DNA from: Ginglymostoma cirratum
Taxonomy: Eukaryota
Assembly: GCA_024137785.1 (NCBI GenBank)
Contig: JAHRHZ010000046.1
Location: 30,792,360 to 30,856,359, forward strand
Length of the DNA stretch: 64,000 nt
Direction of reading: 5' to 3'
In this document: piece after piece, positions 39 to 51,480 of the stretch
How the letters are laid out: the number at the start of each line of letters is the position of its first letter
Numbering within the stretch: the stretch's first letter is position 1
Program-made: the position numbers and the translations under genes
Notes under the pieces: generated by a model
Told to the model about the DNA's origin: nothing
Seen by the model: only the letters and a program-made list of their open reading frames with translations
Database searches by the model: none

Positions 39-2080
39 ATAAATTATACCCAGGTCATTTTAGGTCACTGATTTTTTTTTATTGGAACAGGCCATTGACC
101 TGAAATCTCTCTCTGATGATGCTGTCGGGCCTTCTGAATATTTTCAGGATTTTCTATTTTCTCTTAATTAAGCAGTCGTAAAAACCAATACTTATGCTTT
201 AATGTTTAAAAAAGTATTTCTATCTGTTAAATTTATTATAAAAACTGACCACTTATATGTAACTTATAAATATTTCTGTGTGGATTTTTAAAGCTACTTT
301 GAGTTATTTAAAGTTGATCATGTTCAGATGGTGGCATGAGACACTGAATGAAAATGTTGACTTGTTTTGGATAAATCTAGTTTTTGCAGTGTTATTCAAA
401 CTGCATTCTTAGAAATTTTAAATAATATGCTTTAAAACAAACACAATTTTTTAAAAAGAAAATTTATTCTAAAAATTGCCAAGTTGCACTCGTCCAAGAC
501 AGAATTTCAGGCTTGGTGATGTGCAAATATGTTTCAGCAGAAAGTTGAGAAACAGAAACTCATCTAAAGATGGCGCAATTTTGAGCAAAATTTGTGCCAC
601 GTCTCTGATTGCATCCAAAATAGAAATGCTATTCCATTACTTCTAATGTCACAATTCCACTTACAGTAAATGTATCTCTTCAATTTTACTGACACTGTAA
701 GGTATTGGTTTTTTTATGCAGAATGTGTTTCAGCAAATAGGTTTATAAAATGGAATTGTAAGATTAATACAGCAAAGACAGATGAAAATTGACATTTGAT
801 GTTTTCTTAAATGATGATGAATTCATTCCAGCACTGCAGTTGAAATGTAAAAGAAAATAAAGACAAATTACTTTTTAGTTCATCACTCTAAACCAACAAA
901 CCATGAGATTTGTGTATGCATATCATATCTAAGCTCATTTCCAAAAACATCAATGTGTCATTCAGCACATTCATTTGTAGCCAGTAAGTACAGAATCTGA
1001 TTCCTGTTCATTAGAACAGAACTTATCCTTTTATTAATAACCCCAGTTCTGCAAATGAAATCCCCACAATGCTAAAAGAAAGTAAAACATTTTACCCCAT
1101 GCATAAAAAAAGGTGTAAAGACCTGGTCAAGAAGTAGTAATAACAAATTAGATTTTGATTCTTTTAATAGAAATTTTAAACCAGAACAAGCATGATTTCC
1201 ATAAAATGAAGAAATGTTCACATGGGAACCTGCAAAGCTGACGATGACTTGCTTTGATTCACTACTGAAATATCATGAATTAGGTCACAAAGCCATATGC
1301 ATTCTAGATCCCCAAGGGGTTATATCTATTCATTGATTTGCTTCACATCTATTGGTTCATTCTGTCCTGATCAATTTAATTTCAACAAGTTAAAAACTTG
1401 AGGTGGTTTCCATGTTAAGCATCCAATCTGCAGCAGATCAAAAGTGGAATATGTACCCAAATCCCTCTTCCTTTCTTTTCTCGTGAAATAAAACTAGTTC
1501 TGTGACTTTTTTGGTAAATAAACTTTGATAGAGGCACATTTTTTAAATAGTTGGAAGGTTTCTGACATATTAGGGTATAATTGATATAGGTTTCATTGGA
1601 GCAGGATATCTCCCGAATGCTCCATCGGTTGCACTTGTTACACTCTAGCCTGAAAAGTCTTTACACAGGAGTTGACAGAGCACCTGAAACTTGGTGAATG
1701 ATGAATCAATAATCTCCCCCCTTGATCACAACTGAGGTTAAAGTATTAAGAAATAAACAAAGGTGTAATGGTGAAGGAAACAGGATGAATTAGAGTCAAA
1801 TCCGATACAGAAAGAAAAATAGTAGACTGGATCTTAAATGAAAAAAAGGCATTTTGTCATCACGGTCTCAATCTGCCATTTGCCAACCCACACCTTCCCA
1901 TTTCTAGATTTATCTGAGGCTTGAAGTGGTGGATAACTAATCCAATCCAATCCAAGTCAGAATTTTAAATATGATAAGGAGGTCAATGGCTGATCTACTT
2001 GGGAACTTTAACTAACATGAGATGGGTTTCCTGACCATCGGATTGCCTGGCAGTTTCGTTGATCAAGGACCTGGCAGATT

Positions 2081-8400: not shown

Positions 8401-8685
8401 CTTACCCCTGCTCGTTACTAGACAGAGATAATTAGAACTAACACCTCCAATAATAGAGGTAGTACAAAAAGACTTTGAAATTGGTTTTGTGGGAGTTCTG
8501 CAAATACTCTACAGAATAGCATCAAATCAACTCCTTTCTTTTGCAAGCCGATAGGAATAATGGTCCAAATAGAACGCATAAAGGAAAATGGAGAGGGAGC
8601 ATCACACATTTGTAATTGAGCTCACATAATTTTCTGTCCAAAGTTAATGTGGTTTATTCATGAAAGGCATGTGATCTTCAATCAT

Positions 8686-8780
8686 CATCATAGGAGCAGG
8701 AAAACTTGACGTTTCGGGCCTAAACCCTTCATCAGAAATTTCATCTCGGATTCTCCAGCATCTGCAGTACCTTTTATGTC
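8686..8780. mobile_element. Very short fold-back PLE family A insertion
   Basis: Minus-strand hammerhead arm joined to the plus-strand tail atctcggattctccagcatctgcagtacc. 14-bp TSD TGATCTTCAATCAT at 8672-8685 and 8781-8794. Confidence 0.85.
8704..8739 (-). ncRNA. Minimal type I hammerhead ribozyme motif (core intact)
   Basis: Minus strand reads AUUU CUGAUGA A GGGU UUAG GCCC GAAAC GUC AAGU; activity not shown. Confidence 0.6.
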
Positions 8781-9329
8781 TGATCTTCAATCATTTTCTT
8801 TTCTTCAATACATTTAATTAGAACATTTTCACCAGCTTTACCAGTGCACAAAGGAAAAGATAATTTACTCCATATCTTTGAACATTATTATGTGGTGATG
8901 TCTCTGACCCTTGATTTTTAGGCAAGATCAGAGTTGAGACTGGTCAAAAGATGATTCCACTGTTGCATTCTTTATTTCACTACAGAGCTGCAAGAGGCCG
9001 ATTTGCACGCATCGATATCTCATTTTTATCTGTTCTCATCTCATTTACTTGCAGTTTGCTATTTTCCGATGTGCTGGTGTGAAACTATATGGTGACAAGT
9101 CCTGTCATGAAAGTCAGAGTGGCTACCTGACGGCTCTAGTCCCTCCAGGTCTTGGTTAGCAGTCCCTAGCACCTCAAAGATTTCTCCATGGTAGTGACAC
9201 CTGCACTGTTCAGCTACGGAGGTTGCGTTGGACACACACCAGCCTCTTCACATTATCATGGCACAGCTTTGACTGACTTAGATTATAGGCCTCCACTTTA
9301 ATGCTGAATTTTGGAGCACACTGATATCT

Positions 9330-16712: not shown

Positions 16713-18799
16713 TAACTAAAAGAAATTGCTCCAACCATTTGAACAGGTGACTGCATCCACAAAAGTTAAATCATAGTCAGCAAGAACCTTTGTTTTTAGC
16801 TTCATTATTAATTTAGAAATCCTAGAGACTAGAGGCAAAAATGAATGAAAAGAACTGTTTAATTCTTTTTAATGATCACCACTTTGGAGAAAAGTGAACT
16901 GACTTCTCAAAAACACCAAGCAAATCCCTGAATCCATGGACTAGAATCAGAATCTGATCTAAAAACATGCAAAATTCTCATTTAGTAGCAAAAAAACATT
17001 TGTTTGCTATGCTTTTTGTTTATAATGTAAAATGTTTCATTCTTCTAAATAAACTCTTTAGATACTGAGTTGTAGTTTTGAAATGTCCTGAATTTTTCTA
17101 CATTGACTGCTCCTGCGAGGTTTTACTGAAGCACAGAATTACTGCAGGAACATTTATCTTAAGAAAAACTTGGTCATTCCCAACTCTGAAGGTGGTGCCC
17201 TCCAGGCTTAGTTTGCTGCAGACACAGGTCTTGAAATAACAAAATGCAAAATGTTCTCAATAAGTTGAACGAATCAATTATAAATGACGCCATAGCTCTG
17301 AATAACTGGAATTCATTCAATCCATTTTGGGGCAATGATTTAACGACATGGCAATGACTGATTCAATCTTGTGCGACCGCCATTGCTTTCAAACATTGAA
17401 AGGGTTTGATAGGAGAGCTTGGGATTATTTATACTATACCCTCAAGGAACTTGCATTTGGCACCGGTTTCATCAAATCAATCGCAAAGCCTGTCATAATC
17501 CTAGAGCAATACTTCATAGAAATGTACGACCTTATCTATCTTTTTAATCAACCGTGGAATTAGACAGTTATCCAATCCCCAATCTTGTTAGGGATTGCAG
17601 TTCTGTATCAACTGAGGTCAGACTGACATGACAGTTCCCATGGTGTTCAGCCCAAATGACTCAGGACACATGGCAGATACTGAAATCCTCCCCCATATTC
17701 ATTAGTAAATGTTGAGCGCAGGTGGATAAAATGAAAGCAGTTTGCAGATAAAGCAGGTTATCAATCAACACAGTACAGTCAAGCCGCATGCCATGCTGGA
17801 AGCAATTTTGACGCACATAATTAGCAGGTTTCACTTTATACATAATTAGGCAGCACAGCTTAAATCAAATAAATGTAGAAAATGCTGGAAGTACATAACA
17901 GATCCATCACAACAGTAAAAAAGAAGAACCAACCTTGTCTAACAGTTTCTACCAAATATATTAACTGTTTCTTTTTTGAAATGTCATCTAACCTGTTGAT
18001 TTTGTTTTCACTTTAGGTTTCTGGTATATGTCCTTTCTTTCTTTTGAAAGATTAAATGAAAAATCTTCCCTGTTAGAATCACTGAAAACGTGTCCAAAAT
18101 TAAAAGGATACGGTCTCTGCAACAATTAATGCAAATTGGCAAAAACCTGGACGATTAGCTGAAACTTGCAGTGTTTCTTTGCTTTCTGCAGCATGGCGTC
18201 TGATCCCGGAAAGGAAGAGTAGGAATTGTAATAAAGTTGTTCTGCTTTTGCTTGTTAAGGCTTTGTTAATGAGCCTGCAGGGCACAATGCAACAGTTTTT
18301 TTTTCTCTCCTCTGATGGTAATAAAATGACCAGGTAGGAATTAGCTTCCCAACTGACTTGAAGTTAATTCAGTAATAAAATAACTCTACACTTTGGTGGT
18401 ACATCTGTTCAACATGGATACTGCAGCAACTGTTAGACAAAGTGTGAATAGTAAGAGAGTGCTCTGGTATAGACACATCCCTATTGACTATGATTGGCCT
18501 TCTAAATTGCCTGTCTGGCAATGAAAGAATATTTCCTGACTCATGGGGCAATTTAAGCAGATAAGCAAAATCATTGAAAAACCTCAATATTCTACTCAGA
18601 GAGTGTTTATTTATCTTCATGGGAGACTAAAAAAAATTAATAAAGTTTAGCAAATAGAAACTCATCTCAGGCAGTGGATAAAACAAGTGATATTGAAACC
18701 AGTCATCCATTTTATGCAGTACTCGATAGTTAATTCTAATGATTGCAATGGCCTGAAGACGAGATACTGTAGAATAAGAAGGCAATCCTGTATCACCCA

Positions 18800-19017
18800 G
18801 AGATAGTAAGAACTGCTGATGCTGGAGTCAGAGGTGACACAGTGTGGAGTTGGAAGAACACAGCAGGTCAGGCAGCATCAGAGGAGCAGGAACGCTAACG
18901 TTTCAGGTCGGGGCCCTTCTTTTTTCTGAAGAAAGGTCCCAACCCGAAACATCAACTTTCCTGCTCCTCTGATGCTGCCTGGCCTGCTGTGTTCCTCCAG
19001 CTCCACACTGTGTTATC
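18800..19017. mobile_element. Fold-back PLE family A-related insertion
   Basis: Inverted arms meet at ~18920 with decayed hammerhead cores. 13-bp TSD CCTGTATCACCCA at 18787-18799 and 19018-19030. Confidence 0.85.
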
Positions 19018-27375: not shown

Positions 27376-28875
27376 TGGTCAAGATTAGTCTTGCTTCTGA
27401 CATTGATCAGATTAAAAGTTATCAATTTACCTTTAGATGTTTCCTCCACTGGAAACGCCTGGACAGAGGCCTCCCATCATGAACCTGCCCAGGAATTTAC
27501 AAAGACAGCAGTTGGGAAATTCTTTTTAGAAACCATGGGCCCTTTTGCTGCAACGTGCAGAAGCATAACCAGGTCCTTTATAAGGATAAGTACTTCAGAA
27601 AAGTGTAAGGTTAGGGCAGTAGTTGTTTAAGGGCTTCAGATGCCAGATGGGTAAGGGAGGTAAAGTGATGAGTGGTTGTGTTGGGTATTGTGCCAAGTAT
27701 GTAGGATGCCAGCTGGATGAGGTTCCAGGTAGGTGAGGTCATACTACCAACTAAGCAAATGAGTGTTTAGGGTTGGTCGTGTTTCGGGGGAACGGGCGGG
27801 GTTGGGAGGAAGGCTGCTTTGTCAATTCTCCAATGGAGCAGTTACATTGGCTCCGACAAGTTGAAAGGAAGTCTGAGAGGGGTGGCAGAATAGTTTAGAC
27901 CAGTGGTGTAGAAGTATCAGTTCAGTTTTCAGGACCAAAGGAGGTGCCAGAGAGTGGACTGAGGCAATATTTTGGGCTGGGAACTGATCAGTGATGGGGA
28001 GTGTCTGGTCGCACAGCCAGGAGGTTTTGATGGTGCAGGAGATGTAAGGTCAGTAGAGGGGAGAGTGGGGCACAGGTGAGTAAAGGTGTCTGGTCCTGGG
28101 GGCTGAGACTGTTCAGGGGTTGCGGGGGGGAGCCAGATCCCAGAATATCATGTCAGGTAAGGGGTAGTGAAGGTTTCAGAATCTGGCAGTTACAGTTCTG
28201 CAGGGCTGAGTCAGGAGCTAGTGTCCAATTAGGCCAAGTCAGGACTCTGGTTATCAGAAGTCTGGCTTGTGCAAATGTTCAGAGAAGTTGATTCAGCTTG
28301 ATGCAAAAATATTTTTAAGGCAGCAAGGACAACTATTTTGGAAAACAGACTACCAGGTCGTACTGTTGCAAACATGGGCACATTTGTTTCACCACCAAGA
28401 TATGTCACATTTCAACAATACCCATACCAGGGAGCAGTTAATGTTGCAAGTCAAACATAGACTGTTTCCCCAGAATTGTTAAGGTGAGAAAACAAAGCTA
28501 AAATTGTGTGGATTTTCATAGGCTACTGAAGGTGAGAGAGGGTTGGATGTCGAACACTGTAGAAATCATGAAAAACCACATCCTTATTCTACTCCTCCGT
28601 AGAAATCTGACGCAGATCTATGATGGTTTGAAGCATTAGTCAGATATGTAAGGTCACACCTGTTTAGAATACACCTTGAATTCTGAATGAATTGGTTGCA
28701 GGCAGAAAATCCACCAGCCCCAAAGGATCAGTTGTGTGCAAGTGACAGGATAGCAAGAAATTCCACCTTGAACACCAGAATTATTTTGTATTATAGAAAG
28801 GCAGTATATTACCAAGATTACAAGCATGGGGCTGAATGAACACAGCAGGTCAAGCAGCATCATAGGAGCAGGAAA

Positions 28876-28911
28876 ACTTGACGTTTCGGGCCTAGACCCT
28901 TCATCAGAAAT
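28876..28911 (-). ncRNA. Minimal type I hammerhead ribozyme motif (core intact)
   Basis: AUUU CUGAUGA A GGGU CUAG GCCC GAAAC GUC AAGU: 4-bp helix I, 4-bp helix II, and palindromic ACGU in place of helix III. Confidence 0.65.
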
Positions 28912-29150
28912 GGGGGAGGGGAAGAGGGTTCTGAAATAAATAGGGACGTTGCAGTGGGACAGAGATTCCCTGAGGTTTGTCCGGAGGGAGGAGGGTAACT
29001 TCTTCAGGGTAGGCATCCTTAGAAGAGGCTTCGCAGTGGGGTTAAAATTGTATCAGAGATAAAAGGTACTGCAGATGCTGGAGAATCCGAGATAACAAGC
29101 ATGGGGCTGGATGAACACAGCAGGTCAAGCAGCATCATAGGAGCAGGAAA

Positions 29151-29186
29151 ACTTGACGTTTCGGGCCTAGACACTTCATCAGAAAT
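29151..29186 (-). ncRNA. Minimal type I hammerhead ribozyme motif (one helix II mismatch)
   Basis: Same as 28876-28911 except GUGU for GGGU in helix II. Confidence 0.55.
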
Positions 29187-29959
29187 GGGGGAGGGGAAGA
29201 GGGTTCTGAAATAAATAGGGGGGTTATTTATTTATTTCAGAATTTATTTCAGAACCCTCTTCCCCTCCCCCATTTCTGATGAAGTGTCTAGGCCCGAAAA
29301 GTCAAGTTTTCCTGCTCCTATGATGCTGCTTGACCTGCTGTGTTCATCCAGCCCCATGCTTGTTATCTCGGATTCTCCAGCATCTGCAGTACCTTTTATC
29401 TCTGATGTTACCAAGATTACCTGTCAAACCAAGAAATGGCTGTATACACTGGCTTTGATTACACACATTGTGTCTGAGCCATCTGCTTTGACTGGAGTGA
29501 TGGTTAAAAACCTGTTCTAAACTTTCTGATCTTAACTGTGTTGTTAAGAGAAATTCTAAAAGTTGTCATCTCCTGTTGTGAATAGGAAATCATTCCATGT
29601 CTGACACTTTAGCTATGAAGCATTTACAATGACATTCACGAAGGGCATCCTTTTTATTGTTCCGACTATGTGAGGGGGGGGACTTGGCTCCCTTGTTTTA
29701 ACATGTTCTTCATCAATTTTATTTTATTTCTTTCTTGGCGCACACCTATCACACTTCAATTACAACATAATTAACTAGAACAAAATGAAGGAACTAAATT
29801 ACTAGGTTTTCTTGAAAAACGAAGGAACGTTTTATCACTTACTGCCCTGAGATAAATAATAAAAACTGCGACATTAAGCACACGTGCAAACACAAATGAT
29901 AATTCTAAAAAGAAACTAAAGTGCGTAGCAAGTACAGACAGGAAGGAAAAGGTAGTGTG

Positions 29960-37080: not shown

Positions 37081-37300
37081 ATACCAAGGTGTAGAGCTGG
37101 ATGAACACAGCAGGCCAAGCAGCATCAGAGGAGCAGGAAAGCTGACATTTTGGGCCGAGACCCTTCTTCAGAAATCATTTTTTCAGTCTAGGGCCAAAAC
37201 GTCAGCCTTCCTGCTCCTCTGATGTTGCTTGGACTGCTGTGTTCATCCAGCTCTACACCTTGTTATCTCAGATTCTTCAGCATCTCTAGTTCCTACTATC
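37081..37300. mobile_element. Fold-back PLE family A insertion (older subfamily)
   Basis: Inverted arms ~37081-37175 and ~37185-37266 plus a 34-nt tail. 14-bp TSD TTCTAGTAGCTGAA at 37067-37080 and 37301-37314. Confidence 0.88.
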
Positions 37301-37786
37301 TTCTAGTAGCTGAATATCCTTTACATAATGTGTGCCCAGAAAACTCCAAATGGCTTTGTAAAGCCTGCATATAGTCCTTTTGTCGATTGATTGATGTCTT
37401 CCTGATGTACAAAGGTGCAGACACAGAACTGAAATGACTTCAAGAAGCAACAGCAGCAGGACGTCAGGTGCTGGCTGTGCCTGTGCAGAAATAAGCTTTC
37501 ATGCTAATTGAAAATAGTAACAACGACAACTTGCATTTAATATAGATCTTTTTATGTAACAGACAGTAGGGAAGTCCAGAGCTTAGGGTCTAGGCATTAT
37601 CACCAATATTGGCATATCATTCTAGTGACTGTCTGAATTGGAAGGATCATAAAGATCAAGAATCAATTACAGGTGTCAGTTGCAATAAAATGGCCATCTG
37701 TGCAAATGTAACCTCTTTCTCATGTAATGGGGCACAAAGGCACCAGTTGGGGCTTGGCTGTTAGAATAGTTGGAAACTAATCTGTA

Positions 37787-49269: not shown

Positions 49270-51480
49270 ATAAAGCCATGGCGACAGCTCAACAACAATT
49301 ACATGCCTTAAGTGGCTGCCAACATTACAGCTACAGTGAGAAAAGTGTACTAAAACAACAAAGTGTAGTTTGTTGTACCCACCCTGAAATTGTCCAACTT
49401 TGTGATATTTGTAAAGCACATGACACCAAGGGCCTTTGAATGCGGACATGCAGGAAATCTGATTACAAAGGCAAAGCCAGACCCCAGACAAAGTACATGC
49501 GCCCAACAAGATGGTACAAGCGCTGGCAGCAAGGAAAAAACTCAAGAGAGTACACAAATTCAAGAACATTGTCAAAGTTCAGAGTCAACTAAACAAAAAG
49601 CAAACTTCGAAATACGTTGTTAACCTCAAACATTATGTTGATGGTATAAGGTGATCAGAAAGTTTTACAACCATTAACAATCTTTTTGAAATGGCAGATC
49701 AACGTATTTTAAAAGTTAAAATGAAGACAGGAGCTAGCGTTAATATAATAAAAACCGAAAGAACTGCAGGTGCTGTAAATCAGGAACAAAAACAAAGTTG
49801 CTGGAAAAGCTCAGCAGGTCTGGCAGCATCTATGAAGGAAAAAACAGAGTTAATGTTTCGAGTCCAGTGACCCTTCCTCAGAACACTTACTTCTGAGGAG
49901 AGGAAGTAAGTGTTCTGAGGAAGGGTCACTGGACCCGAAACTTTAACTCTGTTTTTTCCTTCATAGATGCTGCCAGACCTGCTGAGCTTTTCCAGCAACT
50001 TTGTTTTTGTTGCTGGTGTTAAGATATTACCTGAAAGACATGTATCTCAATAAGTGGTGCGCCACAATACCTCCTGTAAGAAACCATTTTACCACATGTG
50101 ACAGATCACAAATACAACACAAGATCACAGGGCAGTGTCAATGTGCAAACTCATTTTGGCTTCTCTAAGTCTTCAAATTGGTAAATGTCAATGCTCTGGC
50201 ACTATGCACAGATCTCAGTGTAGTCGCATGAGATTGAAACCATACCCATGTTGGTGGAACAGATGACACGTGATGCAACCAGAACAGTTAATGATCTGCA
50301 AGGATATGGTTTTGAAATGAGATGGGAGTCAAATACCAGGATGACTACATCTGACGCACTGGTCAGATTACCTTACCCACACAAGGACAAAAGTATTCCT
50401 CTTGACATATGCATTGATGTTCTTAACAACAAAGTTGAAGATGCTCTTAAGGTTAGACTGTTACACTTTAGCCAGAGCGAGTGTGAGCAGTTGCAATCTG
50501 CAAATGCCGAAGGTGAACAAAAGATCATTAGCTCGGGCTGACCTGACAGGACGAAGGAAATATGAGAAGATTTGTTCATTCTGGCCATGTCATTTTCAAA
50601 GGCAAAAAGTCCGACTCCCAAAAATATATTCGATGACTCACGAATGCATGTGAGGCATGTCAGACGTACCAATGCCAAAAGCAGGGGGAGCTCTACATCC
50701 ACATAGCGTTCCATCCACCTGTTAGACAAAAATAGCAATAGACCAACTGACAGTGCATGAGGATGATTACATCCTTGTGAATGCCGCTGACACAATGAGT
50801 GCTAATTTCGATGTATAAGTATCCTGAAATTGACAGTGTCTGACAATGGACTGCAGTTACAAGCAAACCATCTCAAGATCACATCACATGGTCACATCTC
50901 ACCCCCTATCTCATTGTCAACCAACTATCCACACTCAGATTGTCCAGCAGAATACATAGTACACACTACCAAACTAATGATTGAAAAGTATTGAGCAACA
51001 ATGTAAGATTTTTGTCTTGTTTTGGTACATCTCCGTGCAACAACGGCAACAGGGATCCCATCACCAGCACGACTGATGCTCAAAAGGCCAATGCAAACAA
51101 ACTCACCAGAAACCAAAATGTCTAACCATTCCGTGACACAGAACAATTCTTATTCAAAGAAAGAGGAGGATGAAAGAAATACACAATGAACAAGAAAGGA
51201 GAGCACCACCACAATAGTGCACTGGGCAGACAGCATAAATTACAAATCCTCGGATACCAGCATACGTTTCGAAAATTTGCATCCAGCCCAAACATACAAA
51301 GTCATTACTGATCATGGTGCTACATTGTGAATGAATAGACGGCAGCTTAGAACAATACCATACACCGATCATACACACAAACGATGATGATTCGCTGTTG
51401 CTATAAGACAACCAAGATGTTTAAAAAGTACAGCACAGAACAACATGTACCTCTCCTGATGGACATACAAACAACAGAAC
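49270..51480 (+). pseudogene. Gypsy LTR retrotransposon gag end/pol remnant (protease, RNase H end, integrase; RT not recognisable)
   Basis: NCP..DICKA...MRTCRKS knuckle; KMKTGASVNI/LPE protease site; LQGYGFE..SDALVRLP; CEACQ; TKIAID..DYILV; VSDNGLQ; HLRAT..GIPSPARLM. Confidence 0.85.
49748..50011. mobile_element. Near-perfect fold-back PLE family B insertion in the Gypsy protease
   Basis: Arms 49781-49893 and 49903-50015 with 3 mismatches and a 9-nt loop; hammerhead motifs at 49852-49881 (-) and 49915-49944 (+); degenerate 15-bp TSD at 49733-49747 and 50012-50026. Confidence 0.9.

Follow-up and report, generated by a model that had tools for sequence, protein, structure and literature searches.

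The insertion at positions 28822-29407 of the window (the whole stretch of 64,000 nucleotides of Ginglymostoma cirratum DNA that was analysed) is a young, TSD-flanked, non-coding mosaic of a Neptune-type Penelope-like element (PLE). It is real, and it is an ordinary by-product of an active element of this type. Its tandem hammerheads are likely to go back to a single event at insertion, in which the reverse transcriptase (RT) jumped between templates, and not to a self-propagating 275-nt circular RNA.

The insertion is built wholly of PLE front-end sequence, laid out as pLTR, 23 codons, pLTR and inverted pLTR (Table 1), and every piece maps onto intact parent copies. With the hammerhead cut site taken as 0, the insertion maps on the parent as -66 to +68, -65 to +207 and, inverted, -61 to +103. 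The two outer ends of the insertion fall in the two clusters in which family members end, +60-69 and +95-109 past the cut site, the 3' end of the first pLTR piece (28822..28946) lying in the first of these (+60..+69), and the three inner ends all lie at -61 to -66. A direct repeat of 139 nt (28812-28950 and 29087-29225, 96%) has a period of 275 nt, and the inverted copy (29242-29406 versus 29052-29216) is 99% complementary over 165 nt. The alleles at 29154-29087 (CATCC...GTTATCTCGG) can be distinguished from those at 28879-28822. The earlier note had described two minus-strand hammerheads whose GUC triplets end 275 nt apart, at 29155 and 28880, a third, inverted copy, and the loss of almost the whole ORF; these coordinates hold, the third motif is present within 29242-29407, and codons 1-23 are what the window copy retains of the ORF. 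The exact 13-bp TSD also stands, since exact matches between 2000 random window pairs never exceeded 10 nt (0/2000), compared with the 13 observed. Of the inner 10 nt of the left TSD, 8 agree with the element RNA at +59..+68 past the cut site, a likeness that could represent priming microhomology. The near-identical pieces pointed out at 8686, 19662 and 56907 proved to be pLTR sequence only, with no seam, and two of the three adjoin N runs. Elsewhere in the window, the pLTR insertion at 8673-8800 is short and rearranged, with its hammerhead intact and an apparent TSD of 14 bp (TGATCTTCAATCAT). At 37096-37301 and 18798-19017 lie older pairs of pLTRs in fold-back arrangement, which belong to related subfamilies and are 80-89% identical to the element.

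Table 1. Features of the insertion and its flanks (positions in the window; parent coordinates relative to the hammerhead cut site = 0).
Feature	Position	Strand	Details
TSD, left copy	28809..28821	.	TTACCAAGATTAC
First pLTR piece	28822..28946	-	parent coordinates -66 to about +58
Hammerhead core HH2, minimal type I	28880..28907	-	predicted cut 28880/28879
Seam	28947..28947	-	single G, absent from both parent segments; joins ORF +207 to pLTR -66
First 23 codons of parent PLE ORF	28948..29016	-	MPTLKKLPSSLRTNLRESLSHCN, opened by the ATG at 29016
Second pLTR piece and 5' leader	29017..29220	-	parent coordinates -65 to +138
Hammerhead core HH1	29155..29182	-	G-to-U in helix II (U.C mismatch); predicted cut 29155/29154
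Inversion joint	29221..29254	.	extra C/G letters and 12-nt stutter (ATTTATTTCAGA x2.1)
Inverted pLTR	29242..29407	+	-61 to +103; ends at the family's second end cluster, the 'tail'
Inverted hammerhead	29276-29303	+	HH1-type helix II change; reads GAAAAGUC
TSD, right copy	29408..29420	.	TTACCAAGATTAC

The PLE origin proposed earlier is borne out by parents with RT and GIY-YIG in the same genome, to which the window pieces are 97-99% identical. Parents were sought by a protein search of the own genome, in which 150 of 7170 candidates were scored; six were retrieved and ORFs were listed for three. Loci L132, L133 and L134 each hold an open ORF of 1037 aa that starts with MPTLKKLPSSL, and in L134 the matches to RVT_1 (E 8e-8) and GIY-YIG (E 7e-5) are both above the curated cut-off. 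The linker CNRRKCYTC of L133 and L134, a CX4CxxC sequence, fits CX2-5CxxC, which the accessible part of PMC8557442 gives as the Neptune motif between RT and C-terminal EN, also present in Nematis. The parent would thus be a Neptune-type EN+ PLE, the clade being assigned by motif and host type, and the three open RT and GIY-YIG copies indicate that the family is probably still mobile. Its members show the features of EN+ PLEs, i.e. pLTRs with a hammerhead, a partial tandem or inverted 5' copy and a one-sided tail. The parental ATG lies at +139 relative to the cut site. In the near-full-length copy L137 the hammerhead-to-hammerhead unit measures 3568 nt, and the second pLTR piece of the window, together with the leader and the ORF piece, is 98.9% identical to it. 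The hammerhead motif itself occurs in 51,344 exact copies in the 4.36 Gb genome.

The anatomy of the family was assessed in 88 loci around exact motif matches in the first 5.4 Mb of one contig. Among 121 hammerhead-spanning segments the 3' end lay at +60..69 in 56 and at +95..109 in 45; 5' ends at -70..-56 were seen in 1/121 segments, with 47 truncated by the masked reference, yet three such ends coincide at the window locus. For 55 of 113 motifs the 5' boundary lay no more than 6 nt upstream of the core, often after extra T letters (L032-L061, L138-L195), and such boundaries may mark a transcription start or an RT run-off point. The 85 non-overlapping loci comprised 63 solo copies, 19 with an inverted partner and 5 with a same-strand partner within 1 kb (two with both). 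Inverted pairs usually have one arm per end cluster, as at the window locus. The pairing of ends at the window locus has a parallel in 8 of 22 displayed mini-units, from loci chosen by similarity or spacing, in which both 5' ends lie at about -25..-34 (the main -31 cluster). A cap-derived extra G at the main 5' cluster was considered and set aside as weak (7/17 in an unbiased set; 11/20, p 0.04, in a biased one).

The proposed origin of the unit is as follows. The endonuclease would nick the target with a 13-nt stagger, and RT would begin near +60 on uncleaved RNA and copy back through the hammerhead to -66, the likely 5' end of the copied RNA. After addition of one untemplated base, RT would jump to codon 23, on the copied RNA itself or a sister molecule, into a landing zone that would be C/U-rich, copy through the hammerhead again and stop at -65. 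The inverted arm would derive either from fold-back of the cDNA or from priming at the other target end, at +103, two options that are equally open. Hammerhead cleavage would have no role in forming the unit. Taken together with the stutter and the untemplated base, the coincidence of the inner ends makes an RNA 5' end near -66 the simplest account. Both the second pass and the inverted arm stop at the donor point instead of running across the seam, and this speaks against a covalent circle. Fold-back synthesis, a mechanism put forward for Adineta PLEs in the available part of PMC3846280, or later conversion would fit the T that HH1 has in common with the inverted arm. Several points count against the template jump, among them the weak extra-G signal and the passes beyond the donor point at L007/L012 and L011 (below): the locus could descend from a seam-bearing template whose source is absent from the assembly; the one-base helix II difference between HH1 and HH2 would, for a single RNA copied twice, need an RT error or later conversion between the inverted arms; and deletion at the DNA level from a full-length copy yields an identical sequence.

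The last of these is the basis of an alternative that we consider unlikely, in which the inserted element was a full-length copy of 3.6 kb, bearing an inverted 5' arm, and its ORF was later lost by microhomology-mediated DNA deletion with a one-base insertion. In its favour, short microhomology is present in the C/T-rich tracts at both breakpoints, the difference between HH1 and HH2 is one that two separate pLTRs could show, and deletions of this kind are reported for Adineta PLEs (PMC3846280, in the part available). However, the coincidence of the deletion end (-66) with the other 5' ends (-65, -61) is left unexplained, and the ends of all 5 ORF-start segments in two sampled sets (one of them the GTG set) are confined to a narrow zone, +207 to +285, unexpected for random deletions.

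The earlier note had taken the locus for a member of a 275-nt retrozyme-like family. In the corresponding scenario, which we regard as improbable, the insertion descends from, or founded, a true retrozyme: the PLE machinery would have copied a 275-nt circle cut by the hammerhead about 1.5 times over. Two same-strand motifs with a dimer-type ACGU helix III and a unit size within the retrozyme range (PMC7229834, in the part available) speak for it, as do a near-identical seam at two other loci and the head-to-tail seams in five insertions described below. The family claim, however, did not survive a search of the genome. That the ORF-to-repeat junction might occur only here had been set beforehand as an outcome that would speak against a family, and with 1 mismatch allowed the search returned 1 match genome-wide; the seam is single-copy in 4.36 Gb. 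A gapped seam pattern gave 22 matches, with the extra G in the window locus only. L197 and L212 carry a similar seam without the extra G, each with one hammerhead-bearing arm beside the seam and no two-hammerhead unit. Motif pairs spaced 265-285 nt numbered 65, at 1 to 7 per length, and the 275-nt spacing occurred once; 98 pairs were spaced 338-368 nt, at many lengths. These counts are lower bounds, as N gaps lie at many copies in the assembly. Thirty of the 65 pairs were inspected by eye and comprised 12 units of pLTR, ORF start and pLTR, 8 pairs spanning N gaps, 6 chance second matches and 4 other rearrangements. Tandem Repeats Finder (TRF), with settings that differ from those of the preprint cited below, detected no array of period 275 at the locus, which holds only about 1.5 units, and the halt of both later arms at the seam stands against a circle being copied.

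The motifs themselves do fit the minimal PLE hammerhead described in PMC4209133 (in the part available), as had been claimed. HH2 combines an intact 4-bp helix II with a CUAG loop, an ACGU helix III and a 4-bp helix I (AUUU/AAGU), and so has all the elements of a minimal type I motif (core, helix I, helix II, palindromic 15.2-16.2). HH1 lacks an intact helix II, its G-to-U change reducing that helix to 0.0 from -3.9 kcal/mol, and folds at -2.8 kcal/mol (on a 36-nt cut) compared with -9.3 kcal/mol for HH2. The palindromic ACGU that was claimed for helix III is present in both same-strand motifs, but it is lost from the inverted motif, which also carries the helix II change of HH1. An Rfam scan of the locus gave no hammerhead match at E<=1 and only hairpin-driven miRNA matches below the gathering scores. 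The inverted copy is predicted to sequester HH1 in a 165-bp hairpin; in the whole-element transcript a hairpin of -376.5 kcal/mol would lock HH1, the other arm being made first. For the predicted circular 275-nt monomer the minimum free energy (MFE) was -44.3 against a mean of -46.6 for 100 shuffles (z +0.58), with 44% of positions paired, i.e. the circle would not be highly self-paired. The helices of the dimer had near-zero probability in secondary-structure ensembles, a type of folding that does not model the active fold. With helix II of HH1 lost and HH1 sequestered, the copy is predicted to be poorly built for cleaving itself twice and would serve poorly as a source of circles. A role of the helix II T variant as mark of a master's 5' pLTR was also considered and rejected: the variant occurs in 167 exact copies on several subfamily backgrounds, and 0 of the partner-bearing loci among 30 GTG loci had it in the partner motif. 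In three hand-picked inverted pairs it was common to both arms. L280, L281 and L282 have inverted arms that share a rare private variant, like the window locus, and bear on the choice between fold-back and two-end priming. A fold-back pair of a more distant PLE family (window 49763-50011) has a hammerhead with a different N7 and a 5-bp helix II, differences that support the motif as a conserved fold.

Transcripts were looked at in one polyA RNA run, possibly from another organism. Reads of the family were abundant and unstranded, and the locus flanks (28600-29086 queried) were without depth. For the family reads in this run no pile-up of starts or ends was listed, and the commonest loose end, 28946, is parent sequence. 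The flanks being uncovered, the run speaks for the family and not for expression or assembly of the locus itself. The back-junction joining 28880 to 29154, suggested earlier as an RNA-seq check, is not diagnostic because the joined sequence is the ordinary sequence across any of the ~51,000 hammerhead copies. Misassembly of a high-copy repeat is a very improbable source of the tandem or the inversion: many copies adjoin N gaps, such structures trouble short-read assemblies (PMC8557442, in the part available) and no read or contig was seen spanning the locus, but the locus is without N and has a perfect 13-bp TSD at its outer ends, two arms share a private variant, and the same layout is found at many other TSD-bounded loci.

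The wider retrozyme idea fares better at the level of the family, where similar seams recur, sometimes head-to-tail in one insertion, than for the 275-nt unit itself. About 160 near-related seams were found in the genome; a second gapped pattern gave 140 matches. In four classes an identical seam is present at 13, 12, 7 and 7 sampled loci, which are independent sites and often bounded by a TSD, and the recurrent seams span old and young subfamilies (L218-L279). On the ORF side a T almost always precedes the seam, the pLTR points are fixed (-127, -133, -145), and one common class has no microhomology. Clonal subfamilies were rejected as the source of same-seam copies, since the within-class distance was 0.0445 compared with 0.0450 between classes (48 loci, permutation p 0.41); same-seam copies form no clades, so the seams arose repeatedly. 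A spliceosomal origin was likewise rejected, parent flanks inspected by eye giving no GT-AG fit on either strand. Among 100 seam-bearing insertions, from seam-enriched loci, 19 have two or more seams, and in 17 of the 19 (16 by script and L014 by eye) it is the same seam. The repeat is head-to-tail in five insertions (L009, L014, L215, L235 and L238). Their seam periods are about 280-366 nt (also L085). These five, and also L085, are better retrozyme candidates than the window locus. Inverted seam repeats could come from fold-back; for head-to-tail repeats the template must have been periodic, the exact jump must have been repeated or a duplication must have followed, and they hint that short seam-bearing RNA templates exist elsewhere in the family. 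In L007/L012 and in L011 the second pass continues beyond the donor point, so the donor point is not always an RNA end. L007 and L012 have the same seam and the same 3' flank on two contigs, and would represent one duplicated insertion rather than two events. A search of the literature by title or abstract opening found no description of recurrent seams of this kind, on which the supplements of the preprint (bioRxiv 10.64898/2026.07.22.740005) and of PMC4209133 may bear. The average of 363 bp given for chondrichthyan retrozyme families in the accessible part of the preprint is the size of one seam class in this genome.

On its own the locus is an ordinary PLE by-product, of value as a single instance of a pattern that can be tested. 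The exact recurrence of seams across subfamilies in the absence of clades, and their repetition within single insertions, suggest a sequence-directed step at the level of RNA or RT, which the intact parents in the same genome make testable in vitro. Tentatively, and with more doubt than belief, we suggest that the family continually makes short front-end RNAs, with preferred 5' points at about -31, -66 to -77, -127 and -145 and U-ending 3' points at +207 to +250, that would be joined precisely, independent of hammerhead cut and GT-AG splicing, and copied in rolling-circle fashion. If this is true, the genome holds a swarm of nascent retrozymes of which the window locus is a first-generation member, and a direct mechanism is provided for the origin of non-LTR retrozymes from PLEs. 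Circular-RNA elements may arise from stubs like this one whose seams recur. The questions touched are how the tandem and inverted ends of PLEs are formed and how retrozymes derive from PLEs; the preprint, in its accessible part, argues the latter link from phylogeny without giving the step.

Retrozymes are described as multi-copy tandem units that yield highly self-paired circles (PMC7229834), and the preprint defines them by at least two complete units and reports cleavage in 1/9 predicted dimers (both in the parts available). The locus resembles the metazoan non-LTR retrozymes of these sources in being non-coding and PLE-related, with a unit within 150-450 nt, a long TSD (>4 bp) and a type I hammerhead per repeat. 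It differs from them in three tested features, namely a run of two or more consecutive units that all carry a stable hammerhead (TRF and MFE below -5), a multi-copy family of one monomer and a highly self-paired circular monomer, none of which it has, and therefore lies outside the group; its hammerhead is also minimal, not canonical. With the minimal metazoan PLE hammerheads (PMC4209133, in the part available) the motifs have in common the core, an extra A before helix II, G10.1-C11.1, a 4-bp helix I, the palindromic ACGU and the absence of loop III, whereas helix II has 7-8 bp in Schistosoma compared with 4 bp at the locus, and one of the two locus motifs has a helix II mismatch. The Poseidon element PAc of Anolis carolinensis has two internal RT start sites and uses uncleaved RNA as substrate (PMC11167929, in the part available). 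The family's two end clusters, ~36 nt apart, match two RT start sites plus tail, and its inserts hold uncut hammerheads; unlike in PAc, both clusters are upstream of the ATG, and there is a hint of another landing zone, at +207 to +285. Compared with the EN+ PLEs in the accessible part of PMC8557442, the tandem unit of the window keeps 23 codons only and has its hammerheads 275 nt apart instead of 3568. In other respects the parent is like the Neptune and Nematis type, with RT, a CX2-5CxxC linker and GIY-YIG at the C-terminus, and the insertion is like those of EN+ PLEs, with a partial tandem, an inverted 5' copy, a one-sided tail of ~35-40 nt and a pLTR hammerhead.
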